A stretch of DNA of 64,000 bases from a virus (IMGVR_UViG_3300034684_000096:32001-96000); one strand, 5' to 3'. Positions 10,239 to 55,148 are shown, numbered from the stretch's first letter. Notes: generated from the sequence alone by a model not told the origin. Translations and numbers: made by a program.

Positions 10239-10544
10239 TTAATCTACAAATTCCAAATCTTTTGCCGTCAGTCTTTCTACAGGAAGGCTACACTTTTCCC
10301 CCCAATAGATAGTTCCCGTACCATCTAATGCAATGTAGAGCTTATCTCCAGCAATCAATCTCACAGCATACACAACCATACCTTCATAGATACTATCATT
10401 TTGTATTACCCCATATTCTCCGATATTCAACTCATACATGGGAATAAACTCATTTTTGTCTTTACATCTAGCTCTCATATTACAACGTCTCCTTATTTCC
10501 AGCAAACCATAGCTGGTAACTTCTACTCTTAGCTTTAAAACCAA
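10239..10544 (-). CDS. Hypothetical protein, paralog of 48864-49106; true start probably at MRARC
   Basis: Shared MxxLxxGxxxxV...EG...DGTG...CxLxVxxL pattern. Confidence 0.65.
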   Translation of the reverse strand: MVLKLRVEVTSYGLLEIRRRCNMRARCKDKNEFIPMYELNIGEYGVIQNDSIYEGMVVYAVRLIAGDKLYIALDGTGTIYWGEKCSLPVERLTAKDLEFVD

Positions 10545-21279: not shown

Positions 21280-21294
21280 GTTATTTTCCTTTAT

Positions 21295-21400
21295 TGGAGG
21301 TAAGGGGAATTGAACCCCTGTCTTATTAACTCTAAGCTTTCGTAATGTAGGCATTTATCGTCGCTTCATGCAAGTTAACAATCGAACCCTGTATACCCCC
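21295..21400 (-). ncRNA. ssrA: Miniature tmRNA-like RNA (106 nt)
   Basis: Acceptor GGGGGUA/UACCUCC+A with G3:U70; stemless D loop ending GGUUCGA; P2 UUGUUAACU/AGUUAAUAA; GAC then T arm AGGGG-UUCAAUU-CCCCU; internal AUAAAU-GCC...UAG frame. Confidence 0.8.
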
Positions 21401-23818: not shown

Positions 23819-24055
23819 TTAGTCAATACCCAATAATGTATATTTTTCCATTTCTTTTTCCACATATTTCTTGTAAGCCCTTATTGCATTACTCTTTGCT
23901 CTCTCCATTGTCTTACATTCCCCGTCTTTAATCCAGTCTAATTCATTCCCTATATTCCACGCATATTTTCCATACCAATCAAATACTTGTAATTCAATAC
24001 CGAAAGGCATGTACAGTATATACCTACCATTTCTCACATACCATTCCATTATCAA
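23819..24055 (-). CDS. Hypothetical protein, tandem paralog of 23536-23775
   Basis: As above; own promoter TTGACT...TAGAAT. Confidence 0.75.
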   Translation of the reverse strand: MIMEWYVRNGRYILYMPFGIELQVFDWYGKYAWNIGNELDWIKDGECKTMERAKSNAIRAYKKYVEKEMEKYTLLGID

Positions 24056-24079
24056 CCCCTTATCTACTTACATTCTACA

Positions 24080-24337
24080 CTATTTCCCTTTGTTAGTCAA
24101 TACTATTTTCCTAGCTATCGCAATATCTTTTTTCATCCTCTCCATGTACTCAATCTTATTATCCACAAAAACAATTTTCTCATATCCGGTATTTACATTT
24201 CTTACGAATACATACACTACCCTTTCCCCCCATTCGGTATTTACATTATACACAACACCATTATCTCTGGTATTCTTATTCAATGCATAATTCACTATTT
24301 TCAATATGTCCTCATGATTCAATTTCTCAATTATCAT
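24080..24337 (-). CDS. Hypothetical protein
   Basis: ORF with AGGAG RBS. Confidence 0.7.
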   Translation of the reverse strand: MIIEKLNHEDILKIVNYALNKNTRDNGVVYNVNTEWGERVVYVFVRNVNTGYEKIVFVDNKIEYMERMKKDIAIARKIVLTNKGK

Positions 24338-24353
24338 ATCAACTCCTTATATA

Positions 24354-24560
24354 CTACTTCTCTTTGTTAGTCAATACCTCTTTTACATATACATCTGAAT
24401 AATCACTTCTCTCTGATTCCAAACATGCAAAATTATCTACACATGCATTGTCACATAACATACAATACAAACATTTGTTATACCATGATTCTATAGCTTC
24501 AGTTATTACCCCATGCTTACCTCGATATCTGACTTTAGTTCCTATTGCTAAATCAACCAT
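24354..24560 (-). CDS. Small Cys-containing hypothetical protein
   Basis: CxxC...C...C.SERSD; AGGAG RBS. Confidence 0.7.
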   Translation of the reverse strand: MVDLAIGTKVRYRGKHGVITEAIESWYNKCLYCMLCDNACVDNFACLESERSDYSDVYVKEVLTNKEK

Positions 24561-25702
24561 TGTTATCTCCTTATATGTACATTCTATACTAGTATTAGTT
24601 ATTAGTCAAGAGTAAATGAATAAATAGTTTAAATAGATAACATATAATAGATAGATAGGTATAGTGTATATACATTGTGTATACATTGCGTATTATATGG
24701 GTTGTACATTACGTATAAGCAGAAGAGGCCCCTTTTGTTGGAAAAACAACATTTTCTTGCCACATGATAGATAACACCTGTTATGTATAGGTTTTATACT
24801 ACCCTTTATAGGTCTTATATAGGGGAAATACTATGCTATTTTATACCTTTTAGGGGTTGCAATCGCGTCTCTCGGTACATTTTTGTAGCCCAAAGCCCCT
24901 ATATAGCCCACTGTAGCCTATGCTCCTTTCCCTACACGAGCCTTAGCTACCCTAGGCTGTATCCCTACCTTACTCTACCCCTAAAACGCCGTAGAAGCCC
25001 ATTTTAGAGCCTTAGAGAGCACCTAAAAACACCCATTTTACCCTTATTTTTAGCAACTTTAGCTCCATTTTACCCTTATTTTTAGCATGTTTGGTCCTAT
25101 CTGTAACACATATTGCACAAAATATATCTAAGGCACTATTAAATTGTGCGCAATATATCTATGGTGCTAGTGGTGTTTCAGATACTATCTTCTTATAGGG
25201 CTATGACTTATGACATATGTTTAATTCCTAGTAACATGGTGGGTTTTGACATATGACATATGACATTGTCAAGTCCGACTCTAGGCATATATCTTATTAC
25301 CCTGCGTATTGTATAGGTAAAACCCTATATATACCTTGCGTATTGGTCCAGCTACGTTTCCTCTATGGTGTTTTGTTCGTGTGAAGCATGATAGGCAAAT
25401 AGAGCTGTTATTTAGCTATCGGTTAGCTTTAGCTCATTTCCTCTATGGGGTTTTTTTAGAGTATTTTGTACCTTCATTTGAGAGCGTTATTTGAGGGTGT
25501 AAGATTTGCATAGGGGCAAAATATTTTTACCCCGTACAAAAAAGTAGAGATTTCGGGGTGTTGACCCTCAAATAAACGCTCTATTTACAGGTTGGCTGAA
25601 ATTCAAACAAAAGCAGCGGTACAAAAATGAAGATACAAAGAAAGCCCCTCTACTGGAAATGACTAGAAACCAGTAGAGGGGCAAAGGGTATATAAAGAGA
25701 GA
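24561..25702. other. 1.1 kb non-coding region with short repeats
   Basis: No credible ORF; CCATTTTACCCTTATTTTTAGCA twice near 25034-25087; TGACATA cluster near 25200-25270. Confidence 0.6.
25644..25682 (-). terminator. Intrinsic terminator of the early cassette block
   Basis: GCCCCTCTACTGG/CCAGTAGAGGGGC inverted repeat followed by a U-rich run on the minus strand, just after ORF 25703. Confidence 0.75.
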
Positions 25703-26206
25703 CTAGGTAATTTTAAGGTTTTGACGTTTCTTAGTAATGGCTTTACTAAGGCTGTGCCAATACTCACATCCTTCATCTGTAGTTTCCCATTCAAACAAAC
25801 AGTCGACGTTAGAAGATTCAAGAAGTATATTGAATACTTCAGCGTCTACATCATATTTGTATTCAGCATTACACACGTTTCTGATAATCTTATCCAGTAC
25901 CTCTTCAGTCAACCACTGTGTGTAATGTGCATAACCATTGATATCATCTTTGAAGTAGTTGATATAGTCATCATACTCTTCAATGGGTTTGGCTTCATAG
26001 GTGCCATACATGGAGTCTACTCCATTGAGTACTGAAGCAATGAATTCCGCATTCTTCATATCTGTGGTATAGAGATTAGATTTGTCTTTCGTCTTCTTTA
26101 CAAGCTCTCCATCATTGTCAAGTACAAACTTTTCACCTTGTAATGCACCACACGTTACTTCATGTTCGATATAATATTCCATACTGTTTACTCCTTTAGT
26201 CTTCAA
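25703..26206 (-). CDS. Hypothetical protein with C-terminal FEWETTDEGCEYW motif; true start probably at MEYYI
   Basis: AGGAG RBS before the internal ATG. Confidence 0.75.
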   Translation of the reverse strand: MKTKGVNSMEYYIEHEVTCGALQGEKFVLDNDGELVKKTKDKSNLYTTDMKNAEFIASVLNGVDSMYGTYEAKPIEEYDDYINYFKDDINGYAHYTQWLTEEVLDKIIRNVCNAEYKYDVDAEVFNILLESSNVDCLFEWETTDEGCEYWHSLSKAITKKRQNLKIT

Positions 26207-26492
26207 ACCAAAAGCTTAATCTTGTTTTAGCTTCATTTGTTTTATCTTGTAATTGGTCCTCAAATACCTTCTGTTCTTCCATGATGGTAGGAAGCTCAGA
26301 GATATGATGAAAAGTCAAGTATTCACCTAAAGAGTCAATGAACAAGTCAGAGAAAGCATGAGTGATACATAAGGCCATTTCTTCAGTGAATAGCATCGGT
26401 TCTGGTATACCATTGTAGTGGAAGTATTTATCCGTTTCCAGAATAGCTACACCAGTGTATGGATTGGTGTATACAATAAAGTATTGTTTCAT
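26196..26492 (-). CDS. Hypothetical protein (LFTEExAL..xxAFS family)
   Basis: Motif shared with 26489-26911. Confidence 0.7.
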   Translation of the reverse strand: MKQYFIVYTNPYTGVAILETDKYFHYNGIPEPMLFTEEMALCITHAFSDLFIDSLGEYLTFHHISELPTIMEEQKVFEDQLQDKTNEAKTRLSFWFED

Positions 26493-26911
26493 AGTTTCTC
26501 CTTTACACCAAGTACCATATAATCATTACTAAAGGCTTTGGCAATGATTAGTGCTTGTTCTTCAGTGAATAGCAAAGGAGGTGTGTTGTATGTACTATGA
26601 AAACAACCATCAGTTCCTAAATACCTATCACCTAATGCTTTAGCGATACCAATGAATGAAGCAACAATCATATATTGAGTATCATCTACGTCTTTCAACC
26701 ATGCGTCAGAAATTCCATAACCCAATGCCCTACACTGTTCTACAGGCATACCGTCACATGCATGAGGCCAAAGGTACTCACGTCTTCTTTCTTTAGCTTC
26801 TGGATATAGACGGTTCATATCCTCTAGGTAAGTCTCTCTATCAAATACTTTCATTTGTCTCTCCTTATACCTGTACTGCATTGTATAGGCATTCGTATGA
26901 AGCATCAACAT
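26489..26911 (-). CDS. Hypothetical protein; true start probably at MKVFD
   Basis: AGGAG RBS before the internal ATG. Confidence 0.7.
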   Translation of the reverse strand: MLMLHTNAYTMQYRYKERQMKVFDRETYLEDMNRLYPEAKERRREYLWPHACDGMPVEQCRALGYGISDAWLKDVDDTQYMIVASFIGIAKALGDRYLGTDGCFHSTYNTPPLLFTEEQALIIAKAFSNDYMVLGVKEKL

Positions 26912-27062
26912 ATCTAAGTGCCATACAGATTGCTTCCGCCTGTTCCCTTGTCATGATGAACATGTCTGTTGCATGCTGGTATGTCTTGAACCCCTCATCC
27001 ATGCACAAGTAGAGGCATGGTTGCTCTTGGTCTGCTGGTGTAAGTTGTACTGTGTATCCCAT
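26865..27062 (-). CDS. Hypothetical protein
   Basis: Follows a promoter-hairpin element and AGGAGAG RBS. Confidence 0.7.
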   Translation of the reverse strand: MGYTVQLTPADQEQPCLYLCMDEGFKTYQHATDMFIMTREQAEAICMALRYVDASYECLYNAVQV

Positions 27063-27087
27063 ATTGTTTGTCTCTCCTTATAATTCA

Positions 27088-27122
27088 AGTATATCATAGG
27101 GTTGGTTGTTAGTCAACCCTAT
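27088..27122 (-). promoter_or_regulatory. Promoter-hairpin element, copy 1 of 8
   Basis: ATAGGGTTGAC...CAACCCTAT palindrome containing the -35 TTGACT; 17 bp to TGaTATACT. Confidence 0.85.
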
Positions 27123-27136
27123 TTGTAGAAGTTTTT

Positions 27137-27340
27137 CTAGTTTCTGTGCCGGAAATACAGTTCTTTGATTGGTGCATACATATCAAAATCTTCTATTTTC
27201 TGTATGACTTCATTCATTATCTGTCTTGTCTTCTTTTCCCCTACTTCATTGTACAGGGTTGGTACAATAGCTTCCATCATCATGCTTGACATCAGGGACA
27301 TACTCTCTTCAATCAATTGCAATACTTTTTCATCACTCAT
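27137..27340 (-). CDS. Hypothetical protein
   Basis: Own promoter and AGGAGAG RBS. Confidence 0.7.
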   Translation of the reverse strand: MSDEKVLQLIEESMSLMSSMMMEAIVPTLYNEVGEKKTRQIMNEVIQKIEDFDMYAPIKELYFRHRN

Positions 27341-27394
27341 GTTTGTCTCTCCTTATGGTTCTATAATACCATAGTTTATGAATACTGTCAATAC

Positions 27395-27601
27395 CTAAAG
27401 ATTGAACACTTTATTCAATCTTTCTACTAATAGAAGTACAGGACACGTTTCACAATGGTCATAGGCATTGTTATCTACCGGACAATTTAAACAGAATTCA
27501 TCCAACTCATTGATGACTTGTTTCGCTTCCTCTTCAGTAGTGGGTACTACGATGGAAGTGTTTCTTCCTTGCGCTTCTAGGTAAATAGTGTTTACGTTCA
27601 T
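27395..27601 (-). CDS. Small CxxC...CxxC protein
   Basis: CLNCP...CETCP; own promoter. Confidence 0.7.
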   Translation of the reverse strand: MNVNTIYLEAQGRNTSIVVPTTEEEAKQVINELDEFCLNCPVDNNAYDHCETCPVLLLVERLNKVFNL

Positions 27602-27641
27602 AATTGCTCCTTATGTTTCTATAATACAATGGTTTAGGTGA

Positions 27642-28175
27642 TTAGTCAATAGGTAAACCGAAGATTTCCCTAACTATATTTCCCAATGGTTCAGTGTACT
27701 GGTCAATATCTACAGTTTCGTTAACAATACCTTGTAAGAATGCATTATACTCATAATCTGGCATTGTCTTGGAATTCTTAATCATACGGAAGGTAATGTA
27801 GTTTGTACCATCGTGGTGCATACCTTTGGCTTTGAATTCATTCCCCTCTAGGTAATACATACCATAGTCTTGGTGGTGGTTAGGGTGAATACAGTTGCTT
27901 AAGTTATAATCCAACAGACTGAAGCCTTGCTTCCTTCCATTCCATAATCCTAGGCTTGCGATAGCAATAATCCTACCTTCCAGTTCCTTATCCAAAGTAT
28001 ATTTCAATTCATCTAATTGGAATTCAAGGTCAGCTGCTATAAAGTTCCATGCCTCATAATCAGATACACTAGCAATAGTTTCTTCCACATCATCTGATAA
28101 GTCAAACAATTGCTCTTTTGCTTCCTGTACTGCTTCTTCACTATAAGCGTTTTCATTGCTCCATAAAATAATCAT
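27642..28175 (-). CDS. Conserved phage hypothetical protein
   Basis: IIAIASLGLWNGRKQG...HHDGTNYITFR. Confidence 0.8.
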   Translation of the reverse strand: MIILWSNENAYSEEAVQEAKEQLFDLSDDVEETIASVSDYEAWNFIAADLEFQLDELKYTLDKELEGRIIAIASLGLWNGRKQGFSLLDYNLSNCIHPNHHQDYGMYYLEGNEFKAKGMHHDGTNYITFRMIKNSKTMPDYEYNAFLQGIVNETVDIDQYTEPLGNIVREIFGLPID

Positions 28176-28429
28176 TTGTTTCTCTCCTGTATGTTTTGCA
28201 TTCTCTTTCTATGAATACGGATACTTTCATTCAACTCTTCAATCATAGTTTCAATAGTACTATAGAAGCTATCCCATTCTAGAGTACGTGCAACCCCTAT
28301 GGTGGTTTCTGGACTGTAGAATTCAACTTCAAGGTTGTCTTGCTCATAACCGATAAATACTTTCATGGTATCAGTTTCTAGGTCCAAAAGCTCTGCAATC
28401 ATTCTCTTCACCTTGTCTTGGTAATTCAT
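28172..28429 (-). CDS. Hypothetical protein
   Basis: Follows a promoter-hairpin element. Confidence 0.7.
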   Translation of the reverse strand: MNYQDKVKRMIAELLDLETDTMKVFIGYEQDNLEVEFYSPETTIGVARTLEWDSFYSTIETMIEELNESIRIHRKRMQNIQERNK

Positions 28430-28454
28430 TTGCTTTCCCTCTCTTTATAACTCT

Positions 28455-28490
28455 ATTGTACCATAGGGGTTGGTTGTTGTCAACCCCTAT
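28455..28490 (-). promoter_or_regulatory. Promoter-hairpin element, copy 2
   Basis: ATAGGGGTTGACA...CAACCCCTAT then GGTACAAT. Confidence 0.8.
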
Positions 28491-28503
28491 TTCAGAAGTT
28501 TTT

Positions 28504-28863
28504 CTAAATAATCGCTAGAGCATAAGGTACATAGTTTCCACAGTTGTCACTAATCTCTAGGTTTGCATACAACTTGGCCAAAGCGTCAGTATAAGAGGTT
28601 GCATCGTGCACAATCTTCTTGCTTGCTTCAGAAACATGCAGAAGGTTTAAAGCATTCAACAACGCTTGTTGATAGTCATATTTTTGCCACGACCGATTAA
28701 CCCATGAATACGTTCCACGCACCGCATGTACCATTTCATAATCAGAATCAAACAATGAGATAGTTACAAACTCATAAGAATATGCTTTGGTGGTCTTGTC
28801 TCTCGTAGTGAAAATAATTGTGTTAGCCATTTGTTTTCCCTCTTTATAATTCAAGTATACCAT
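28504..28863 (-). CDS. Hypothetical protein; true start probably at MANTI
   Basis: NRSWQKYDYQ motif; follows a promoter-hairpin element. Confidence 0.7.
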   Translation of the reverse strand: MVYLNYKEGKQMANTIIFTTRDKTTKAYSYEFVTISLFDSDYEMVHAVRGTYSWVNRSWQKYDYQQALLNALNLLHVSEASKKIVHDATSYTDALAKLYANLEISDNCGNYVPYALAII

Positions 28864-28889
28864 AGGGGTTGGTTTAAGTCAACCCCTAT
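28854..28889 (-). promoter_or_regulatory. Promoter-hairpin element, copy 3
   Basis: ATAGGGGTTGACT...CAACCCCTAT then GGTATACT. Confidence 0.8.
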
Positions 28890-28901
28890 TTGATAAGTTT
28901 T

Positions 28902-29216
28902 TTAGAAAAACATAGTAATGTTAGTCCCCAATGTATGATGAATTCGTACAAGGAATTCCCCTGCAAGTGAATTAGCATTCATGATACTGTTTACTTCACT
29001 GTACCATCTATTCATACAGAAGCCATCACCATAAAATTGGTAGGCATCATCATAGAACCTAATACCTCTTTGGGTAATTTCCCCGTCTTTGGTGAATTGT
29101 ACCCCATACAACTCACCTTCCTCACTGGTATTAGTGATATAGCCGAAAGTTGCTTTCTTTTCTTTTACCGCTTCCATTTCTGCAAGTACTCTAAATTTGA
29201 ATTCTTCTTTAGTCAT
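28902..29216 (-). CDS. Hypothetical protein
   Basis: Own promoter and AGGAG RBS. Confidence 0.7.
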   Translation of the reverse strand: MTKEEFKFRVLAEMEAVKEKKATFGYITNTSEEGELYGVQFTKDGEITQRGIRFYDDAYQFYGDGFCMNRWYSEVNSIMNANSLAGEFLVRIHHTLGTNITMFF

Positions 29217-29319
29217 TGTTGTTTCTCCTTGTTCTCTTTATACCTAATTCTACCATGTATAAGGTATGGTGTCAATAGTATTTGAAAAAATAAATAAAAA
29301 AGTTTTTTCTTTTTAGGTA

Positions 29320-29539
29320 TTGACAACGGTGTGAAAGTATGATATACTGAACAAAAAAGACTTTATTTTTTCTTAAATTTGTATACAGATTAACGTATGA
29401 CTTATGTCATATGTCAGAAGTTCGGAAGTCATAAGTTCTGACATATGTCATAAGCTAACTTCTCACATAAAAAAGCCAACTTTTGACATATGTCATATGA
29501 CAAGCGCGAAGACCGATATATGATAATATATCGGTCTTC
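29320..29539 (+). repeat. TGACATA repeat module 1 (promoter, repeats, terminal hairpin)
   Basis: TTGACA 29320-25, TATACT 29343-48; repeat body; hairpin GAAGACCGATATAT/ATATATCGGTCTTC at 29508-29539. Confidence 0.85.
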
Positions 29540-29592
29540 AATTTAATTACACGCTATAAAATAAGGGACTATCTCTAGTCCCTTATCAGTTG

Positions 29593-30006
29593 TCACCTCA
29601 TGTACAATTTAATTGGTTCTTTCTCTGATGGAATTTTTACCAAGAAGGTATTGACTCCAGTCTCTCTATCACAGTCAATTTCCATTTGCTCTATCAATTC
29701 CCATTTGTCGGAATATTCATCAGAATAAGCAATGAGCCTATCTGGTTGTTTCTTTGAACGTTTGATGTTCATAGTTATTCCGGAATCAGAAACCAAGAAT
29801 ACCCATGAATAATTACCATCATCATCTAATGAATAATCATTGATGACTACCATGTACAAGTATTCGCTTAAGTATTCATTCCATTCTCTATCGTCAACAA
29901 TCTTCTGGAAGTCTTCCATGGAAGGATTGAACAGCGTAATGTGAGTGTTATGTGCTCCTTCTGTGAAGTTTCCACCATTTTTCTTTTTCCAGTCTTGAAT
30001 AGTCAT
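29593..30006 (-). CDS. Hypothetical protein
   Basis: Follows a promoter-hairpin element; hairpin ATAAGGGACTA/TAGTCCCTTAT downstream. Confidence 0.75.
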   Translation of the reverse strand: MTIQDWKKKNGGNFTEGAHNTHITLFNPSMEDFQKIVDDREWNEYLSEYLYMVVINDYSLDDDGNYSWVFLVSDSGITMNIKRSKKQPDRLIAYSDEYSDKWELIEQMEIDCDRETGVNTFLVKIPSEKEPIKLYMR

Positions 30007-30028
30007 TGTTATCTCTCCTTATAATTCA

Positions 30029-30063
30029 AGTATAGCATAGGGTTGGTTGTTAGTCAACCCTAT
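30029..30063 (-). promoter_or_regulatory. Promoter-hairpin element, copy 4
   Basis: Near-identical to copy 1. Confidence 0.85.
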
Positions 30064-30075
30064 TTCATAAGTTTT

Positions 30076-30390
30076 TTAGATAAATTCTACTTTCATGTAT
30101 TGCTCACTAATCATGATACAATCTTGTTTGAGGATATTTTTCAATACTTGTGCTATGTTGTTAGCTTGGAAGTCATTGTCCATAACTTCCAATACATAGG
30201 AAGTCTCTTGTACACCATTCCAATAACCATCAGTGGTATACAGTGTATATCCTTCCCATTGGGTATTGTGTCTGTTGTACGCTTCCCTAGCTATTTCTAT
30301 AGCGTTTACAACTTCTTCTTTTGTGAAAGTCTGTTTGACTTCTGAATTGCTACCAGTCTGTGAACCAATGTAAAGTTTTGTTACTTTCAT
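30076..30390 (-). CDS. Candidate S-adenosylmethionine lyase-like (or DUF3574-like) protein
   Basis: GYTLxxxxGYWNGVQETSYVLEV...LKQDCIM resembles the phage SAM lyase GxW..ExS...QE pattern (by eye). Confidence 0.5.
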   Translation of the reverse strand: MKVTKLYIGSQTGSNSEVKQTFTKEEVVNAIEIAREAYNRHNTQWEGYTLYTTDGYWNGVQETSYVLEVMDNDFQANNIAQVLKNILKQDCIMISEQYMKVEFI

Positions 30391-30492
30391 GTAGTTTCTC
30401 CTTGCTCTCTTTATACTTAATATTACTATATATATAATATAGTGTCAATAGTATTTGAAAAAATAAGTAAAAAAGTTTTTTCTTTTTTAGTA

Positions 30493-30751
30493 TTGACAAA
30501 GTAATAAACATATGATATACTATAAAGATATGGTTATTTTTATATCCTAGTGTCAGTGTAGACTATGACTTATGTCATATGTGTAGGGTATGACTTATGA
30601 CATCAGTATATGGTATGACATATGTCAGAAGTTCGGAATCCAGAAGTTGCACAGTTGTCATATGACATAAGTTTCCCATAAAAAGACCAACTTTTGACAC
30701 ATGTCATATGACAAGCGCGAAGACCAAAAATAATATATTATTTTTGGTCTT
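30493..30751 (+). repeat. TGACATA repeat module 2
   Basis: TTGACA 30493-98, TATACT 30516-21; repeats; hairpin AAGACCAAAAATAAT/ATTATTTTTGGTCTT. Confidence 0.85.
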
Positions 30752-31268
30752 TATTAATCAATTCTCTAAATGAAGCATTATCAATGTATTCTTCTATATG
30801 CTTGCACGCGCTTACATAAATATTGTGTGCTTCCTCTTCAGTAGCATAACGACCCAAATGTATAACCTTTTTGCCTATCCGTATCTTTGCCTCGTACCTA
30901 CCCTTATGTTTATCAAAATAACAACCAACAAGTTTACCTTTCCTGTGTACTTTTCGATTTTGATTATTTCCCCTATCAGTAACCAATCTTAAGTTTTCAA
31001 ACCTATTGTCAATCCTATTTCCGTTAATATGGTCAATCTGCATTCCTTCTGGAATATCTTCACCTGTTGTTAATACCCAAACAATAGTATGATAGTATAT
31101 CCGCATACTATTGAACCTTACTTGACAATAACCATTATTAGTACCATTGTTCTTAACAAGAACCCATTTAGTACTTGGGTAACTTCTCAGCCTTTCCAAA
31201 GTACCATCCTTAAGCCTAAATACTTTCTTCAATTCCTCTACATCAATAGGTTTTCTTTTCATATACAC
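30738..31268 (-). CDS. HNH homing endonuclease with AP2-like C-terminal domain
   Basis: YHTIVW...IDHINGNRIDNRFENLRLV..RGNNQN; YEAKIR...HLGRYATEEEAH. Confidence 0.92.
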   Translation of the reverse strand: MYMKRKPIDVEELKKVFRLKDGTLERLRSYPSTKWVLVKNNGTNNGYCQVRFNSMRIYYHTIVWVLTTGEDIPEGMQIDHINGNRIDNRFENLRLVTDRGNNQNRKVHRKGKLVGCYFDKHKGRYEAKIRIGKKVIHLGRYATEEEAHNIYVSACKHIEEYIDNASFRELINKDQK

Positions 31269-31282
31269 TCCTTGAAATAAAA

Positions 31283-31386
31283 ACCCTATTATACTATCTC
31301 CCCCTTTCGGGTCAGCACGGAAACAGTATAATAGGGTAAGATTTTACTCAAGGAAACAAGAAAGTGCTGATGTCTCTTGTTTCCTC
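31283..31386 (-). promoter_or_regulatory. Two-hairpin leader with complementary loops upstream of the HNH gene
   Basis: Stems AGGAAACAAGA/TCTTGTTTCCT and ACCCTATTATACT/AGTATAATAGGGT; loops carry TCAGCAC and GTGCTGA. Confidence 0.65.
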
Positions 31387-31511
31387 AAACCATATAAAGA
31401 GTGTATCACATTCCATATGACATTGTCAAGTCCTACTCTAGAAAAAAGTCAACTTATGATATACATATTTCCGGCTTTATAACTAAAGGGGAAGTTACTC
31501 CCCTTGTTGAT

Positions 31512-31724
31512 TTAAAGATAGGATACAATGTTCTGGATATCCGTAACTCTAAGACTGTCAGAACACCCGCTTTCCATGTACAACTTCAGTACGTCGATTG
31601 GTTTCATTTCGTCAATCTCATACGCTGGTACTCTACCCAATGCTCTGTACTCTGTAAGGTTTTGAATCCTTGAGTAAACGTTTGTGTAATACTTTTGTTT
31701 CATCATTTGTCTCTCCTTGTTCAT
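31512..31724 (-). CDS. Hypothetical protein
   Basis: Follows a promoter-hairpin element. Confidence 0.65.
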   Translation of the reverse strand: MNKERQMMKQKYYTNVYSRIQNLTEYRALGRVPAYEIDEMKPIDVLKLYMESGCSDSLRVTDIQNIVSYL

Positions 31725-31745
31725 CTTGCCTCTCCTTATAATTCA

Positions 31746-31780
31746 AGTATATCATAGGGTTAACTAATTGTCAACCCTAT
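31746..31780 (-). promoter_or_regulatory. Promoter-hairpin element, copy 5
   Basis: ATAGGGTTGACA...AACCCTAT then GATATACT. Confidence 0.8.
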
Positions 31781-31791
31781 ATCCAGAAGTT

Positions 31792-32145
31792 TTACAATGT
31801 TTTTATGAAGTTTTGAATACTTGTGATATCCTCATCAAGGTCGTTGTATGCCTGTTTAGCTCTTCCATATGTGTAATCTAGCAGAAGGTTTGGAAGTGCC
31901 TTCACAAGTGCCTCATGTACGCTTACCAGCTCAAGGAGCGTAATGTGTCCGTTATTATACTTTTGTTGGTATTCTGCAAGAGTATCCGCTTGGGTACGCA
32001 TGGCAGTAATGTTCATCTCAAGCTCGTTGGTCAAAGACTTTCCTCTCTTCCTCAACTCTTCCTTCAGGTTTTCTACTGATTTGTTCATCTCTTCTTTTGT
32101 GTTCATGTTGTCTCTCCTTGTTCTCTTTATACCTAATTCTACCAT
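31792..32145 (-). CDS. Helical hypothetical protein; true start probably at MNTKE
   Basis: AGGAGAG RBS before the internal ATG. Confidence 0.7.
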   Translation of the reverse strand: MVELGIKRTRRDNMNTKEEMNKSVENLKEELRKRGKSLTNELEMNITAMRTQADTLAEYQQKYNNGHITLLELVSVHEALVKALPNLLLDYTYGRAKQAYNDLDEDITSIQNFIKTL

Positions 32146-32209
32146 GTACTATAGATAATGTCAATAGTTTTTCAAAAAATAAATAAAAAAGTTTTTTCTT
32201 TTTTTGGTA

Positions 32210-32431
32210 TTGACATATAGAGTAAAGTATGGTATACTGTAAATAGTATGGTTTGTTTTCATATCCTAGCATGTTGCTTGCCTATGACTTATGACATAAG
32301 TGAGTTAGAAGTTCAGAAGTCATAAGCCCTGACATATGACATAAGTAAACTTCTCACATAAAAAAGCCAACTTTTGACATATGTCATATGACAAGCGTGA
32401 AGACCAAAAATAATATATTATTTTTGGTCTT
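32210..32431 (+). repeat. TGACATA repeat module 3
   Basis: TTGACA 32210-15, TATACT 32233-38; body nearly identical to module 1; hairpin identical to module 2. Confidence 0.85.
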
Positions 32432-32435
32432 TATT

Positions 32436-32588
32436 TTACTTCACCTCTTTAAGTATCACGTCTGTTTCGATTCCATTGTACTTAAGTTTAAGCTCTGTTA
32501 CAATCTGTTGTGCAGTACATAAGTGCTCACATACTGCTACACAATTCCAGTCATCTTGACAACCAGCCATTACTAGATATACTTTCAT
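32436..32588 (-). CDS. Small protein MKVYLVMAGCQDDWNCVAVC...ILKEVK (below ORF-track cutoff)
   Basis: Translated by hand; AGGAGAG RBS and promoter-hairpin element upstream. Confidence 0.6.
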   Translation of the reverse strand: MKVYLVMAGCQDDWNCVAVCEHLCTAQQIVTELKLKYNGIETDVILKEVK

Positions 32589-32616
32589 ACTCTCTCCTTG
32601 TTCTCTTTATACCTTA

Positions 32617-32652
32617 AGTATATCATAGGGTTGGCTTAACTGTCAACCCTAT
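32617..32652 (-). promoter_or_regulatory. Promoter-hairpin element, copy 6
   Basis: ATAGGGTTGACA...CAACCCTAT then GATATACT. Confidence 0.8.
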
Positions 32653-32664
32653 TTGATAAGTTTC

Positions 32665-33003
32665 CTAGAAAATTTTATAGATAAGCTCTTCAAACTTCTC
32701 TCTTGATGGATACTCATAATCACAATAAATGACTTTCCCTTCTACCATAACAACAAAGCTGAAATAGTTGTCCTTGTTCAAAGAATCTTTTATCACAATG
32801 TAGTTATCACTCGTACACTCTGAAGAGATATATACCTTTGTTTTTCCTTCTCCCTCGTAAGTTATGGATACAAGGAACGTAACATTTGTACAAATCGCTT
32901 TATCCAGTTTTTGCAATTCCTGCATTAAACTTACAGGTAGGAATGTTTCTTGCACACCAGAACCCGTTCTCACAATCTTTCCATTTACTGAATATACAAT
33001 CAT
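32665..33003 (-). CDS. Hypothetical protein
   Basis: Cassette between promoter-hairpin elements. Confidence 0.7.
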   Translation of the reverse strand: MIVYSVNGKIVRTGSGVQETFLPVSLMQELQKLDKAICTNVTFLVSITYEGEGKTKVYISSECTSDNYIVIKDSLNKDNYFSFVVMVEGKVIYCDYEYPSREKFEELIYKIF

Positions 33004-33025
33004 CTTTGTCCTTCCTTATAATGTA

Positions 33026-33061
33026 AGTATATCATAGGGATTGATTAATGTCAATCCCTAT
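33026..33061 (-). promoter_or_regulatory. Promoter-hairpin element, copy 7
   Basis: ATAGGGATTGACA...CAATCCCTAT (compensatory change) then GATATACT. Confidence 0.8.
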
Positions 33062-33073
33062 GTAAGAATGTTT

Positions 33074-33586
33074 CTACAAGTATTTTACCAGTAGTTCTGT
33101 ATCGATATACACTGAACCTCCCATCTCAATACAAGCGTACTGACTGTAATTGTTCTTCAGTTCCTCGTAAGCTCTCTGCTTCAGTCCATAAGGAATTTCA
33201 TCCTTATAATCATCCCAAGCTTTCAATACTGCTTTGTATTCATATTCTGCCACAGCTTCGTCGTCAATTGCTGGATATACTGCTAGGTTTGCCACAACAT
33301 CATAAATTCTCTGCATGGTATTCAAGGATACCTTATCGAAATCAACGACTACCGCAACTGAACCATAATCACTGAAGAATCTTTTCACTCCCTTGATGTT
33401 GCGGAACATTTTCATAAACTCCTGTACGTTGGCTCTTTCCACACCGCAAGAGGAATCATAATCCCCATAGCAACAGAATGGAATTGACGCATAGTTCGTG
33501 TTGTCCCAATTTTGATAGCACTTGTCCAGCATTGCAACTTCTTTGATAAGCTCCATAGTCTGTTTTGTGAGTTCTTTTCTAGTCAT
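33074..33586 (-). CDS. Conserved phage hypothetical protein
   Basis: GDYDxSxxVERANV...LAVYPAIDDE. Confidence 0.8.
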   Translation of the reverse strand: MTRKELTKQTMELIKEVAMLDKCYQNWDNTNYASIPFCCYGDYDSSCGVERANVQEFMKMFRNIKGVKRFFSDYGSVAVVVDFDKVSLNTMQRIYDVVANLAVYPAIDDEAVAEYEYKAVLKAWDDYKDEIPYGLKQRAYEELKNNYSQYACIEMGGSVYIDTELLVKYL

Positions 33587-33607
33587 TGTTCTCTCCTCTA
33601 TAATGTA

Positions 33608-33643
33608 AGTATATCATAGGGATTGCTTAATGTCAATCCCTAT
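33608..33643 (-). promoter_or_regulatory. Promoter-hairpin element, copy 8
   Basis: ATAGGGATTGACA...CAATCCCTAT then GATATACT. Confidence 0.8.
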
Positions 33644-33656
33644 ATTTGAAGTTTTT

Positions 33657-33932
33657 TCAGAACGGCATCATTTCTCCATCCCTGTACATATGTCGTAACC
33701 TTTGACCAACGACCATTGGTTCAATTGTGTATGTATACATACCATACTTGTGATGTAATGTACATTTGGAAGTGTATCCAGCTCGTAAGATACTTGCAAT
33801 TTCAGCTTGTGCCAACAGGTAGGTTGTGTGAGCTGAGTGAAAGTCCATTTTTCCAGTTGCTGCGTTGTACACGTAGACTCTATTGATTGCTTTATCCGTT
33901 GCGTAGCTTGCTTTTCTTGGAACGTTTGTCAT
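33657..33932 (-). CDS. Hypothetical protein
   Basis: Own promoter and AGGAG RBS. Confidence 0.7.
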   Translation of the reverse strand: MTNVPRKASYATDKAINRVYVYNAATGKMDFHSAHTTYLLAQAEIASILRAGYTSKCTLHHKYGMYTYTIEPMVVGQRLRHMYRDGEMMPF

Positions 33933-34039
33933 TGCCTTTTCTCCTTTACTCTTTAACTATCTATAGTATAGTGGATACTAGTATAAATGTCAATACTATT
34001 GTAAAAAAAAAGATTTATTTTTTATTTTCTGTTTTACTA

Positions 34040-34460
34040 TTGACAAAACTGTATTTTTATGATACAGTTTTTTATAGTGGGGAGCTTATGACACATGACA
34101 TAAGTCATAAGTTCAAAATAGAAGTCACTTATGTCTTATGACTTATGACATAAGTTGGTAAAAAAAGCCGTTTTAAGATATGTCATATGACACAAGCGCG
34201 AAGACCAATATAATACTTATGTCATATGACATAAGTTAAGTTCGGAAGTCATAAGTCCTGACATATGACATAGGCAAACTTCTCACATAAAAAAGGCCAC
34301 TTATGACATATGACATATGACATAAGTCAAGCCGGATATTTACCATATCCGGCTTGTGACATAAGTATAATCCCCATAAGTCATAAGTTCGGAAGTTCGC
34401 TATACACATATAGTGGTTGCCTAGTTTCTCCCCAACTTTTGACCAACTTATGACATTGCC
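34040..34460 (+). repeat. TGACATA repeat modules 4 and 5 (expanded tandem copy)
   Basis: TTGACA 34040-45, TACAGT 34063-68; two repeat bodies; hairpin CAAGCCGGATAT/ATATCCGGCTTG near 34328-34356. Confidence 0.85.
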
Positions 34461-34949
34461 TATAGAACAGGTACAAAGCTATATATAGAATGGTAAAAAT
34501 AGCCAAAAAAAATAGCCAAACCCAACGTATGAAACGTTGGGTTTGGTGGTAGTATGGTATATTACATATTATCCAAAGTAGTATACCATACCAGTTTTCT
34601 CATTATAGCATACGCTATAAAGTCCCTCTTTATCCAATATAGCTTGGATACGCTTGTCATCGTACCCAACATACAACTTGTGACGAAACACACGATTGAC
34701 CCATCTTATTATGTTACTCATATTCAATATCCTTTATATTTTAGGGTAGTACATTACATACTACCCTAGTCATTAATTATAAAGTACCTGTTTTTATACC
34801 TCGAAATTTCATTACTGCTAGTACTTTCTTCCCTTCCCTAGTATTGTACTTTTTAGCGCATACAATACTATCAACCCAGTGCAATCCTGTATAGTAAACT
34901 CGATACTTGTCTTTCATATACCGGACCTTTATATCACGATATATAATCA

Positions 34950-35228
34950 TCAATAGTACCTTTCATCTTTGGGTACTATATCGTTATACATGTTTTGTAT
35001 CAACATGTTATTAGTAACCTTATGATACAAGGGTTTATGCTCTCTTGCTTTTCTAGGTTTACTATGTACAGACTTATGAATTCTATACATTGCTGTATCC
35101 AAATTGAATAGGTCGTTGAATTTAGCCCGTTCTATACAAGCCTTCTCTACCAGTTCCTTGTAACTGTTACAATTACAAGCTTTAGCTTTCTTGCTACCAG
35201 ACAATTCTAAAAACCGTACTTTAGTCAT
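34950..35228 (-). CDS. Basic hypothetical protein
   Basis: GGGGA RBS after a hairpin. Confidence 0.65.
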   Translation of the reverse strand: MTKVRFLELSGSKKAKACNCNSYKELVEKACIERAKFNDLFNLDTAMYRIHKSVHSKPRKAREHKPLYHKVTNNMLIQNMYNDIVPKDERYY

Positions 35229-35285
35229 TTTTAAATCCCCTTTATATTTTAGGGTAGTACATTACATACTACCCTAGTCATTAAC

Positions 35286-35588
35286 CTAGCAGATAAAACT
35301 GTACTCACCTAACTCTATACCACCGTACCCATAAGTGAAACTTACAAGGTTTTCAAAACTGAATGTGTTCCATTCTAATTCAGTAACATACAGGGTATTA
35401 ATTTTTACCTTGCCATTTAATGCATACAGCCAGTGGTCTACGAATACCAGCCTTGTGCCGCTTGTAAATTCTACAGTAGTGATATCCAAGTGCGTTGATA
35501 CTTTACTGTATACCCTACCACCATGTGCCATTAGAAACTCAATAATTGTATCCTTGTCAATAGAATTGACAACCGTGTGTTTATCCAT
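35286..35588 (-). CDS. Hypothetical protein
   Basis: GGGGA RBS after a hairpin. Confidence 0.7.
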   Translation of the reverse strand: MDKHTVVNSIDKDTIIEFLMAHGGRVYSKVSTHLDITTVEFTSGTRLVFVDHWLYALNGKVKINTLYVTELEWNTFSFENLVSFTYGYGGIELGEYSFIC

Positions 35589-35643
35589 TTAAATCCCCTT
35601 TATATTCTAGGGTGGTACATTACATACCACCCTAGTCATTAAT

Positions 35644-36027
35644 TTAGTTAAACATAAACTTGTATAACTTCTCTCGTACTACTTTCCTACTAGGGATAGT
35701 CCAGTCTGCATATCGAGTATAGTCGACTAGTTTCTCACTATTCTTATGCTGACTATAGGTGAACCTTACTGTATTATCGTAAAATGAGTAATACATAGAA
35801 TGGCAATGTATATACGGTAAGTCAATATGTTCAACTACCATATATACATCATGGTTGCAATGAGTGTTAATTCTAGCGTTCCAACCAACACCGTTTACTT
35901 GCTTATTCAATGTTGCAACCATTGATTCGAATTCGTAAAGCAAATAGCTATACTTGCTCCCGATAGTCTCTACTACCGTCTCTCGACTCGACTCATTGTA
36001 ATCAACACAATACTGAATTGTAATCAT
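35644..36027 (-). CDS. Hypothetical protein
   Basis: ORF between hairpins. Confidence 0.7.
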   Translation of the reverse strand: MITIQYCVDYNESSRETVVETIGSKYSYLLYEFESMVATLNKQVNGVGWNARINTHCNHDVYMVVEHIDLPYIHCHSMYYSFYDNTVRFTYSQHKNSEKLVDYTRYADWTIPSRKVVREKLYKFMFN

Positions 36028-36282: not shown

Positions 36283-36989
36283 GGTATATGCCTCCCTCTA
36301 TTGAGATACGATACTACAAAGTAGTATTTTTCAGATATCCTACGGGTTACACGCTGAACTACTAGGGTCAGTCCTCAACTGACGGCTTTTTATCTGGTAA
36401 CCGGATATCATGCTAGTTAATGTAAAAAAACCTTATCTATACTTAAGAGTATGGGCTGCCAATGTGTTCTTGTGTTGTATGATTTATAGAGTGTTTATGT
36501 AGTATGTGTGGTTTATGTGTAGTAGTGTATCTAGTAGCATATACATAAACATGCGATATCATAGTACTATCTAATTTGCTCTCATTTGCACGTGAGGCGG
36601 CCTAGAATCAATCTTATATATCAAGTTAAAGAATTACACCGGCCATGTTAATAAAATGCAGTAGCGACAATATACGGGTTTTTACAATATACTACTAGTA
36701 TAAAAGTTATATAAGAATTATATAGGATAGCATAGTGTATATTTTATGCATAGAGATTGCATAAACAGGTTGTATGGTATTGCTATAGTTGTTGTATAAA
36801 AGTTATATAGGTTTTATACAGGTTTTATACAGGTTTTATATAGGACTGATATTTGTCCGATATCAAAGTTATATAGGTTTTATATTAAAATAGTTGAGTT
36901 TTTGTATAGGTTTTATATGGGGGGTACTGCGCACTCCCCTCTCGCAATTTTTGCACTATTTTCCATTCCCTATTTAGGAATTTTTGTGC

Positions 36990-37132
36990 GTAAGTTGCTT
37001 ATAAGGGTGGTTTAATTCCGGTAAGTTGCTTATAAGGGTGGTTTAATTCCGGTAAGTTGCATATTAGGGTGGTTTAATTCCGGTAAGTTGCTTATAAGGG
37101 TGGTTTAATTCCGGTAAGTTGCATATTAGGGT
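36990..37132. repeat. 31-bp tandem repeat, about 4.6 copies
   Basis: GTAAGTTGC(T/A)TAT(A/T)AGGGTGGTTTAATTCCG head to tail, no spacers. Confidence 0.95.
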
Positions 37133-37372
37133 TTTGAATGTCTCTATATAGGTAAGTTGCATACATGATACATAACATCTGTTATATAACAACTACTACG
37201 ATAATGTTTCTTATATCTCATTTCTTTACTGAACAGCTACTATAGTATTACTTATACCCTATATGGTATATTTAATAAATAACCCTTAAAAGGTATAAGT
37301 TCGGATATGAAAAAAGGGAAGTAGTATATAAACTACCTCCCTCTATATTTTTTCCTCCCAATTTTTTATTAC

Positions 37373-51863: not shown

Positions 51864-51947
51864 TACTCAGGGAGGGACTTGAACCCTCACATCCGAAGAC
51901 ACTAGCTCCTTAAACTAGCGTGTTTACCAATATTACACCACTTGGCA
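51864..51947 (-). tRNA. tRNA-Leu(AAG) with mismatched acceptor stem (possibly pseudo or split)
   Basis: Anticodon arm CTAGT-TTAAGGA-GCTAG; long variable arm; T arm GAGGG-TTCAAGT-CCCTC; acceptor TGCCAAG/CCTGAGT pairs poorly. Confidence 0.65.
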
Positions 51948-51950
51948 ATT

Positions 51951-52024
51951 TAGCTAGGGAGGAACTCGAATCCTCATTCATCGAATTTTAAGTCCGATTG
52001 CGTTACCATTTAGCATACCTAGCC
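51951..52024 (-). tRNA. tRNA-Leu(TAA) with short variable loop
   Basis: GGCTAGG/CCTAGCT; TCGGA-CTTAAAA-TTCGA; GAGGA-TTCGAGT-TCCTC. Confidence 0.8.
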
Positions 52025-52032
52025 ATATATCT

Positions 52033-52785
52033 TTATAACTTAATTCCGAGACTTTTAAGGTCTTCTTTTTCTAAAATTATAATCTTTCTATTAGGATTAT
52101 AATTTAAAACTGCTTCCATCTTTCTCCTATCATCAACTCTACCATCAGCAGTTTTCCAATAATATCCTTTAACCTCAACAAAAGAGTTAGAGTCTGGAAG
52201 ATAGAAATCAGGATAATAATAATGAGTATAATCATCTTCAAAAAGCTTATATTTTAAATGTTTTTTCTTAGTTTTTTCCCAATTAATGTTATTCTCATTT
52301 AAATATATAGCATATTTGTACTCCCAACTTCCTTGAAGAGAAACTTCTCTATTCATATAAGGACTAAATAGTTTATACCATTTTGTTCTTACACAACCAT
52401 TATTTCTTACTCCCATACTATTTGATATTTTTTGTTTTGTCTCTTTTGTATGCTTTCTTCCTAAAAAAGGTGGAGCAATCTTATTTTCTTTTATATTATT
52501 TGTATAGGTTTTTCCTTGTTTTATTCTACTTTCTTTTTCTTTTTCTTTATTATTCTCTCTCCACTCTTCTGAAGCCATTCCAAAAGGTCCTTTTCTATCT
52601 TTAAAAGAATAACTCTTAGGATATTCTTTATGAGCTTTTTTAACCCCTTTTGAATTTTTTTGCTTATTAATTGGACATTTAGAAGGTGAGCTTTCACAAA
52701 TTAATTTTCCATTTTTTAATCTATATTTTGCTACATTTCCACATCCATAATAACACAGTTCTTCTGTTTCTATTTTTTCTAGCAT
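52033..52785 (-). CDS. NUMOD3-containing PD-(D/E)XK homing-type endonuclease
   Basis: CYYGCG zinc motif; GRKHTKETKQKIS NUMOD3; GSWE...YYPDFYL...VEVKGY; AT-richer than neighbours. Confidence 0.85.
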   Translation of the reverse strand: MLEKIETEELCYYGCGNVAKYRLKNGKLICESSPSKCPINKQKNSKGVKKAHKEYPKSYSFKDRKGPFGMASEEWRENNKEKEKESRIKQGKTYTNNIKENKIAPPFLGRKHTKETKQKISNSMGVRNNGCVRTKWYKLFSPYMNREVSLQGSWEYKYAIYLNENNINWEKTKKKHLKYKLFEDDYTHYYYPDFYLPDSNSFVEVKGYYWKTADGRVDDRRKMEAVLNYNPNRKIIILEKEDLKSLGIKL

Positions 52786-52830
52786 ATTATAACCCTCTCA
52801 TTATTATAATAATTATAATATCTATAATAA

Positions 52831-52850
52831 GCCTATTCCACCACCTAAGC
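52831..52850 (-). pseudogene. Orphan 5' fragment of a tRNA-Leu
   Basis: GCTTAGG-TG-GTGGAATAGGC; GCTTAGG pairs with CCTGAGT at 51865-51871. Confidence 0.6.
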
Positions 52851-52858
52851 AAAATCAA

Positions 52859-52931
52859 TCAGAATGGTAGGACTCGAACCTACGACTTCCTGAATCCAAA
52901 TCAGGCACGCTACCAACTGCGCCACACTCTG
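52859..52931 (-). tRNA. tRNA-Pro(TGG)
   Basis: CAGAGTG/CATTCTG; CCTGA-TTTGGAT-TCAGG; canonical D and T arms. Confidence 0.95.
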
Positions 52932-52950
52932 AAGATGTGTTATACACACA

Positions 52951-54477: not shown

Positions 54478-54489
54478 TGTAAACTCCTC

Positions 54490-54685
54490 GACGCATTTTT
54501 TTATTACACCAAATAAATATTTCTGCTGTTTGCGTCAATAAAACCTAGATGCGAAATTGTTTTCTAAACCTATTATAGAATTAATTATTGCTTGCTGTAT
54601 GCATCTATTGTATTCATTTCAAAAAACATGACACATATAAAATTCAACTTAAAAGGTTGGTCTATAGATTTGCTGTTTGTGTCAT
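54490..54685 (-). ncRNA. Array of three ACAGCA-bulge hairpins in the DUF2828 leader
   Basis: Stems GACGCA/TGCGTC, TAGATGC/GCATCTA, ATGACACA/TGTGTCAT, each followed by an unpaired WACAGCA. Confidence 0.75.
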
Positions 54686-54698
54686 CCTTTATACTCAT

Positions 54699-55144: not shown

Positions 55145-55148
55145 GTTT

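Follow-up and report, generated by a model that had tools for sequence, protein, structure and literature searches.

The early region of an uncultured phage harbors a multicopy family of non-coding cassettes, in which a near-consensus predicted promoter leads into heptad-repeat units of about 120 nt. We describe the family in a 64,000-nucleotide stretch of DNA (bases 32001-96000 of the IMG/VR record IMGVR_UViG_3300034684_000096; hereafter the window), where four such modules, M1 to M4, lie between positions 29320 and 34460. The cassette family is real, conserved and, as far as our searches reach, undescribed. We tentatively favor the reading that the modules might yield abundant immediate-early non-coding RNAs that act as multivalent decoys. 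In large virulent phages, the early region is usually seen as a string of small anti-host proteins. The best-conserved features of the present one, however, are not proteins but a non-coding cassette of very regular design.

Promoter cassettes and anatomy of the repeat unit

The features of the family in the window are given below; all promoters are predicted by consensus match, and transcript starts are deduced from the -10 box.

25198-25290, plus strand: partial unit C0, a heptad cluster in the 1-kb non-coding region 24640-25700 (nhmmer match to the unit profile at 25201-25289, E 2.5e-10)
29247-29275, minus strand: early promoter, TTGACA-17-TAGAAT, 11/12 matches with TG, within the 155-nt repeat family D3
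29276-29319: A/T tract between this minus promoter and P+1
29320-29348, plus strand: promoter P+1, TTGACA-17-TATACT, 11/12 matches with TG
29355-29545, plus strand: module M1 (predicted transcript), with one unit at 29396-29518 and a closing hairpin at 29508-29539
30420-30448, minus strand: early promoter, partner of P+2, TTGACA-17-TAATAT, 10/12 matches
30493-30521, plus strand: promoter P+2, TTGACA-17-TATACT, 11/12 matches with TG
30528-30755, plus strand: module M2, with a heptad-bearing 25-nt tandem repeat of 2.8 copies at 30564-30632, a unit at 30609-30729 and a hairpin with T-rich tail at 30719-30752
32136-32164, minus strand: early promoter, partner of P+3, TTGACA-17-TAGAAT, 11/12 matches with TG
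32210-32238, plus strand: promoter P+3, TTGACA-17-TATACT, 11/12 matches with TG
32245-32440, plus strand: module M3, with one unit at 32283-32409 and a hairpin with T-rich tail at 32397-32434
33965-33993, minus strand: early promoter, partner of P+4, TTGACA-17-TATACT, 11/12 matches
34040-34068, plus strand: promoter P+4, TTGACA-17-TACAGT, 10/12 matches with TG
34075-34460, plus strand: module M4, a tandem run of the hairpin-less unit 4a (34087-34210) and unit 4b (34218-34338), with a hairpin at 34330-34354
34215-34236: perfect 22-bp palindrome in M4
about 34355-34460: partial third unit in M4

An initial annotation of this DNA had proposed four near-consensus plus promoters, at 29320, 30493, 32210 and 34040, each paired with a minus promoter across an A/T tract. 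All four pairs hold, with plus promoters of 10-11/12 matches and a plus-to-minus spacing of 45-47 bp in each. Sites with at least 11/12 matches number 14 in 24000-36000, against 0.8 ± 0.8 (maximum 4) in 200 mononucleotide shuffles. In family D3, gene start, minus promoter, A/T tract and plus promoter form one repeated block of 155 nt. The predicted minus promoter of the fourth pair serves a 91-aa gene at 33657-33932.

Alignment of the modules (A1), together with the repeat families D2, D3 and D5, revealed that M1 to M4 are paralogues and bore out the conserved blocks claimed in the annotation. In total, the window has five full units, which stand behind four of its strongest promoters, and two partial units; the further cluster that had been pointed out near 25200-25270 is such a partial unit. 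Three of the four modules contain a single full unit, which measures about 115-130 nt. As seen in the alignment of units (A3), each unit is composed, from 5' to 3', of a 5' heptad cluster; a polar block, TAAGTT(C)GRAA-NNN-AGAAGT (in RNA form AAGUUCGGAA..AGAAGU); a central heptad cluster, TGWCATATGWCATAWG; a polar A-rich block, C-N-CA-N-AAAAAAGC (in RNA form CACAnAAAAAAGC); and a 3' heptad cluster, TGACATATGWCATATGACA, after which come AAG and, in the majority of units, a hairpin. The conserved blocks are non-palindromic and confer polarity on the unit. The arrays lie over neither promoter: they are first met about 40 nt downstream from the deduced plus start, some 120 nt away from the minus promoter.

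The modules have a GC content of 0.30-0.36, and their longest plus-strand ATG open reading frames (ORFs) are of 26-47 aa. Given that the indels in alignment A3 are of 1, 2 and 4 columns, no reading frame is common to the copies, in agreement with the ORF-free character first ascribed to the modules. A coding leader peptide was set aside, the frame being lost between M2 and M3.

Conservation of the family in relatives

A scan of metagenome contigs with the module pattern yielded seven loci, comprising three true relatives (L025, L027 and L029) and four chance matches (L026, L028, L030 and L031). The window phage and these three relatives provide a set of 19 units from four sources. In L025, one unit and an HNH gene are arranged as in the window at 88% identity, and L027 carries three tandem units. 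The 14,270-bp contig L029 has ten genes in common with the window phage and carries ten units, whose orientation with respect to its genes is uniform. Its protein identities to the window phage are 47-58% in eight of the ten pairs, one 62.5%, and 25-32% in the other two. Its units and promoter cassettes, in comparison, share 67-85% nucleotide identity with the window copies. The cassettes are better kept in this distant relative than the neighboring genes. Conservation in relatives, to which the initial annotation had looked for a check, is found, and the orientation against the early genes that it described extends to all 19 units, which share the strand opposite to the genes.

The promoter arrangement is conserved as well. 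Seven of the ten L029 units follow a near-consensus plus promoter, and the A/T tract and divergent partner recur there too; consensus matches place plus promoters at reverse-complement positions 5321, 7915 and 9744, and a TTGATA variant near 5964. In both phages, a tandem M4-type module is divergent to the 91-aa gene or its homologue. Alignment A3 revealed three unit subtypes common to the window phage and L029; the copies are therefore not merely homogenised in one genome. The modules also occur in close relatives, at about 90-97% identity, whose contigs from aquatic, sludge and hydrocarbon runs often break or join there: one contig of run X4 joins 29535 straight to 31475, the HNH gene being absent, and several contigs terminate inside modules. 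Short and modular, the element marks recombination boundaries that shape mosaicism in the lineage.

A DNA similarity search of 50,697 phage records returned nothing similar to the modules. In IMG/VR, two module motifs had zero exact matches and a 170-aa neighboring protein had no relative; relatives found there via the capsid protein were short fragments, with a top identity of 74% on an 11-kb contig. A three-heptad scan of genome contigs gave 68 loci, with a full unit in none. Those from a metagenome-assembled genome (MAG) of 57% GC, labelled Heliobacteriaceae, among loci L033-L091, are plain (TATGTCA)n or (TATGACA)n tandem repeats and unrelated to the modules. These MAG runs have 5-10 copies on at least 13 contigs, adjoin other short tandem repeats and constitute a dispersed family. 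A Propionispira site pair lies between unrelated genes and was judged unrelated or due to chance.

Closing hairpins

A perfect 8-17-bp stem terminates 14 of the 19 units. The closing hairpin reported earlier is found in the window at the end of M1, M2 and M3 and after unit 4b, and is absent from the internal unit 34087-34210. Among the 14 hairpins, the 5' arms are of 13 distinct sequences in about eight classes, with pairing retained and some single compensatory pairs (for example, GATTATAG/CTATAATC versus GATCATAG/CTATGATC). A T-rich tail follows seven of them. Four hairpin-less units are internal members of tandem runs, and the hairpin of one further unit, L029rc 5433, is degenerate. As the internal units are devoid of a hairpin, tandem runs would be co-transcribed. 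The modules share with promoter-to-terminator non-coding RNA genes a promoter of their own, conserved in relatives by consensus, and a 3' hairpin kept by compensatory change.

The heptad lattice

TGACATA occurs 36 times in the window versus 15.95 ± 3.9 expected, a count reached by 0 of 100 shuffles, and 30 of these sites fall inside the four modules or at 25211-25260. Over the whole 120-kb record, 39 of the 64 TGACATA/TGACTTA sites are concentrated in five 1-kb bins. The lattice GWCWTAW (GWC-WTAW) has 74 sites in the 1124 nt of modules, corresponding to 65.8/kb, compared with 0.87/kb over the remainder of the genome. This density, together with period-7 arrays detected by TRF at 25247-25266 and 34302-34324, upholds the 7-nt-phased TGACATA/TATGTCA/TGACTTA units of the initial annotation.

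The GWC-WTAW lattice is its own reverse complement. In-register contiguous heptads form runs of 2-4, direct and inverted, the longest being of 3-4 heptads, and on one strand TGACA and TGTCA stand at 76 to 48. The sole freely varying heptad position is the center W of TGWCA, which flips between A and T; a natural variant, 29493 T>A in two contigs of run X4, is a flip of this kind. Positions 25250-25284 and 31407-31441 are 89% identical to each other (repeat family D10).

A putative decoy RNA

In the model that we tentatively favor, host RNA polymerase would initiate at the near-consensus sigma-70-type promoter, whose A/T-rich upstream region is common with the divergent early-gene promoter. Past a leader of about 40 nt, it would transcribe one to three of the roughly 120-nt units before ending at the intrinsic-terminator-like hairpin. 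Each unit RNA would present three UAUGWCA heptad clusters and two polar blocks, the A-rich one unpaired. Through mass action, the RNA could act as a multivalent sponge or decoy whose target, a host factor with sequence specificity, would be a defence nuclease or an RNA-binding regulator. The RNA would be active during host takeover, beside the surrounding anti-defence-like ORFans. The transcript is favored as the selected product because the promoter is conserved, the polarity uniform, the hairpins compensated and the hairpin-less units internal. We infer that the modules would be made into RNA, that this RNA would be the active molecule and that it would have a binding partner. In predicted ensembles, the heptads have a pairing probability of 0.6-0.9, and the A-rich block, with a mean of 0.0-0.3, is exposed in every unit; this predicted pattern fits an RNA, as a weaker regularity. 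If the modules are decoy RNAs, the small set of known RNA-based counter-measures in phages would gain a family and a heptad-array design that are both new, and the modules would hint at a host factor that recognises TGWCA-TA repeats.

Several observations, however, weigh against a decoy RNA. RNAalifold on the 19 units gave 0 consensus pairs in the unit body. A helix between the central and 3' heptads is 76.4% paired, yet this value is equalled by 472 of 500 column shuffles; its covariation score (0.046) does not reach the shuffle mean (0.063), and the center bases of paired heptads do not co-vary (complementary versus same, 5 to 10 and 4 to 15 in the two best registers). The self-complementarity of the lattice is expected for a symmetric binder of double-stranded DNA (dsDNA) and lacks an evident reason if the motif acts in single-stranded RNA. 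Furthermore, heptads stand without a strong plus promoter ahead at 25198-25290 and in the spacer of the HNH-gene promoter (31407-31441), and the T-rich tail is absent from seven of the 14 hairpins. No binder for the units was found by computation among the phage proteins (Pfam, PHROGs and fold searches), and the 20 sequencing runs listed for the stretch include 0 RNA runs.

Single-sequence folds of the units are very stable (z of -4.6 to -9.0) and differ between copies save for the last hairpin. Alignment of the copies, which the initial annotation had proposed as a check for covariation, thus gave none in the unit body, and a structured-RNA family is not supported. Therefore, only a linear-motif RNA (sponge or decoy) or a role at the DNA level remains. 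Since the heptads show no coupling, their pairing potential is a by-product of the conserved palindromic lattice. The annotation had offered a small-RNA family or a transcription-activated DNA element; the transcription-unit anatomy is supported, and a small-RNA family of the structured kind is not.

Some specific identities were dropped on account of motifs not conserved across the 19 units, namely an anticodon-loop or T-arm mimic, a MazF UACAU decoy, a Chi site in AAGCGCG and -35 decoys.

Alternative functions of the modules

The main rival reading, possible though we hold it rather doubtful, is that dsDNA is the functional entity. The 2-4 contiguous heptads would then be cooperative arrays for a small dimeric DNA-binding protein of the phage or host, similar to omega of plasmid pSM19035. 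Such arrays could possibly control the flanking early promoters by silencing or timing them, or keep the DNA that enters first tethered or organised, with transcription as an accessory that clears or resets the complex. The symmetry of the lattice is the strongest argument for dsDNA recognition by a symmetric protein: the lattice is the same on both strands, its center W flips without compensation, and both heptad orientations occur on one strand. In addition, the arrays always stand beside the four bidirectional early-promoter cassettes, and heptads also occur outside the promoter-driven modules, including the promoter spacer 31407-31441. A DNA array, on the other hand, leaves unexplained the constant polarity and the polar conserved blocks, as well as the compensated hairpins and their restriction to the last unit of a tandem run, and the position of the arrays over neither promoter speaks against it.

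The candidate binder families for such an array are likewise missing from the matches. Among the Pfam families listed for 128 small proteins (25 of 34), no ribbon-helix-helix, ParB, ParA or Xre-type family was present, the record being about 85% complete; among those listed for 55 larger proteins (25 of 30), the same families were absent except for one HTH_17 match. Two conserved, syntenic small proteins were considered as binders, and the searches gave a DNA-binding fold for neither. The 91-aa P0001, divergent to M4, has three homologues and a model with a predicted local distance difference test (pLDDT) score of 79, for which Foldseek returned no match at E ≤ 0.001; the best VIA Z of 6.6 was within noise, and the Atlas gave nothing. 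The basic 92-aa P0007 has one homologue, a predicted template modeling (pTM) score of 0.43 and no match.

Omega itself, a ParB protein of ribbon-helix-helix type, is the closest mechanistic analogue for the heptads. According to passages of PMC9499535, it recognises contiguous 7-bp WATCACW repeats in either orientation at six dispersed promoter sites, one dimer binding per heptad in a cooperative manner, and two repeats being enough for high affinity. The phage arrays resemble these sites in their unspaced 7-bp repeats, mixed direct and inverted, at several dispersed places near promoters. However, the phage WATGWCW (TATGACA, TATGTCA, TTATGAC) differs from WATCACW at one fixed position and does not match the consensus; the phage runs comprise 2-4 heptads, in contrast to 7-10 that overlap promoters in the pSM19035 passages. 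Moreover, the phage arrays reside within a predicted transcribed-type, terminator-closed unit instead of over promoters. Given the short runs, their position off the promoters and the absence of ribbon-helix-helix, ParB and ParA from the families listed, the phage arrays are not members of the omega family. If they nevertheless act as DNA arrays, omega-type cooperative heptad recognition would extend from plasmid partition to phage early-gene control.

A more far-reaching possibility, which we regard as speculative, is a new class of host-takeover factor. In one form, the strongest phage promoters would from the first minute yield multi-unit RNAs that, by means of self-complementary heptad arrays and exposed A-rich blocks, soak up a sequence-specific host protein or defence nuclease. 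In the other, DNA arrays and their RNA copies would bind one factor, with transcription titrating the protein off the incoming genome. Either form, if true, would represent an RNA-based counterpart of protein anti-defence genes, present in several subtypes across divergent phages.

We consider it unlikely that the modules are selfish or architectural elements devoid of a function in trans, that is, mobile bidirectional promoter-plus-terminator units through which recombination shuffles early genes, or whose plus promoter mainly boosts the divergent early promoter via shared UP elements or local supercoiling. Recombination-driven gene shuffling has been attributed to T4-type promoter-early stem-loop (PeSL) cassettes. 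In agreement with such a role, contigs of related phages break or join at modules, as in the joint of 29535 to 31475 in run X4; D3 carries its four parts as a single repeat; and the nine promoter-in-hairpin elements of family D1 bound other gene cassettes. An insulator, however, requires a terminator alone, which leaves unexplained why some 120 nt of heptads and blocks retain 67-85% identity where proteins are at about 50%, as well as the three common subtypes and the tandem units behind one promoter.

The chance that the modules are transcription-activated sites of replication or priming (R-loop origins), or an injection-stop or tethering signal of the T5 kind, seems very small. R-loop origins are modeled on T4 oriF/oriG and ColE1, and some traits are compatible with either role: strong promoters without genes, AT-rich downstream repeats, several dispersed copies, and a position in an early block flanked by two long non-coding regions. 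One of these regions, 36290-37370, harbors an iteron array composed of a 31-bp repeat of 4.6 copies (36990-37132) and of 11-bp repeats of 3.8 copies and 22-bp repeats (36784-36890), which is the most classical candidate for a replication origin in the window. Because this iteron candidate (36803-37132) is about 2.5 kb away, an origin role for the modules, one of the options in the initial annotation, is less likely; the RNA-releasing hairpin also argues against a persistent R-loop. As to the annotation's injection-stop option, of the 18 DnaA boxes (TTWTNCACA) in the window, 0 are located in 29300-34460 or 25150-25300, so the trait proposed to define the T5 signal is missing. A protein-loading array, another of the annotation's DNA options, may still hold. 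In its capsid protein, the phage shares no more than 33% identity with any cultured phage, which marks the phage lineage as isolated, and T5-like phages are absent from the best 12 of the 27 cultured-phage records matched.

The resemblance to T5 concerns other traits. As described in passages of 10.1101/866236, the T5 terminal repeat contains untranslated repeats that are better conserved than the surrounding ORFs, one of them split by an HNH gene, and the outlasting of ORFs by first-injected repeats is a precedent for the dsDNA array. Both systems have complex direct and inverted repeats with palindromes, non-coding and adjoining an HNH gene in the earliest-expressed region. The T5 regions differ in that paired DnaA boxes define them, and these passages contain no description of them as promoter-to-terminator units.

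Comparison with phage non-coding RNAs

RNA decoys known from phages include the Racr solitary CRISPR-repeat RNAs (PMC10651486) and pseudo-ToxI repeats (PMC3475682). The modules, if transcribed, would share with these, and with sponge RNAs, the character of small non-coding RNAs with their own promoter, sometimes multicopy or tandem, that act early in infection by mimicry or by titrating a host protein. Multi-motif sponge RNAs are exemplified by CsrB and RsmZ, and ToxI-like arrays consist of tandem direct repeats of a few tens of nucleotides, each of which binds the toxin. The phage units differ in length (about 120 nt versus about 30-45 nt), in their self-complementary heptad motif and in the absence of any Rfam resemblance: neither at the gathering threshold nor at E up to 5 did a family match, the CRISPR-repeat and ToxI models included in that search all giving E ≥ 0.88. 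For Racr, this means that no Rfam CRISPR direct-repeat model matches the units. A type III antitoxin array of the ToxI kind was rejected, with units of about 115-130 nt, one unit in three of four modules and no Rfam match.

In phage K (Kayvirus), putative small non-coding RNAs derive from the early terminal-repeat region (passages of PMC9241854). They resemble the modules in their immediate-early region of many small genes in a large virulent phage, and some lie opposite early genes. According to these passages, however, it was RNA-seq that revealed the phage K RNAs, most of which run antisense to genes; no heptad architecture or multicopy family is described for them in the passages of PMC9241854, and they have no sequence relation to the modules. 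Early phage non-coding RNAs thus exist, but none of those compared has the module design. A literature search for bacteriophage early non-coding RNA with heptamer repeats found no paper, and searches with the exact heptad strings gave unrelated papers only.

Genomic setting of the modules

The IMG/VR record is a linear fragment of 120,004 bp, estimated to be 85% complete, and its ends are without repeats. In our own ORF call, all genes from window position 839 to 61959 are on the minus strand, and plus-strand structural genes begin at 63430. The phage encodes a DnaB-like helicase, a primase, a RecA-like protein, an SNF2 helicase, Thy1 and a class II-like ribonucleotide reductase. The modules are located in an early block (25.7-36.3 kb) of small, mostly ORFan genes with one consensus promoter per gene. 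This 10.6-kb block is flanked by two non-coding regions of about 1 kb (24640-25700 and 36290-37370) and could be a terminal repeat or a first-entering segment. The region 24640-25700 contains several 26-28-nt direct repeats in addition to the heptad cluster. Positions 900-1500 of the L029 reverse complement are likewise non-coding and repeat-rich, with a related repeat motif.

A second repeat family, D1 (68 nt, nine copies in 24561-33655; for example, 27068-27135, 30009-30076 and 31726-31793), marks off single-gene units in the block. In each D1 cassette, the -35 box of a minus-strand early promoter lies inside the hairpin that terminates the preceding gene, a layout that resembles the T4-type PeSL cassettes. 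A free-standing HNH endonuclease gene (30738-31262) has its stop codon within the closing hairpin of M2, and is preceded by a long hairpin (31270-31356) and a promoter with a heptad-like spacer (31400-31441).

Among 21 neighboring proteins, those in the early block have only an HNH match, a sub-threshold S-adenosylmethionine (SAM)-lyase match and DUF7336 in Pfam or PHROGs; further along the arm, four unrelated enzyme or motif families were matched. The SAM-lyase match is to a 104-aa early protein (30076-30390), at 23.4 bits versus a cut-off of 28; L029 encodes paralogues of this protein, two at about 47% identity and a third at 25%, each adjoining a module. Two Lar-like restriction-alleviation proteins are encoded elsewhere in the phage.

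The same arm also carries an RNA toolkit: a mini-tmRNA match (21292-21400; Rfam, 52.1 bits), RtcB (8415-9587), an RNA ligase (10480-11586), a Ro/TROVE-like protein (52951-54477; phrog_850) and eight or nine tRNA genes (51864-57775). Pth2 and an RF-1-domain protein are found among the small proteins of the phage. Between tRNA genes, a 412-aa protein (56343-57581) matches the phage 'transposase' families phrog_506 and phrog_13964 and may be of TnpB/IS605 type; the modules were rejected as an omegaRNA of this TnpB-like gene, their place and layout being wrong. Finally, two copies of a 42-bp tandem repeat (90% match) are located at 63237-63320, directly upstream of the first plus-strand structural gene.

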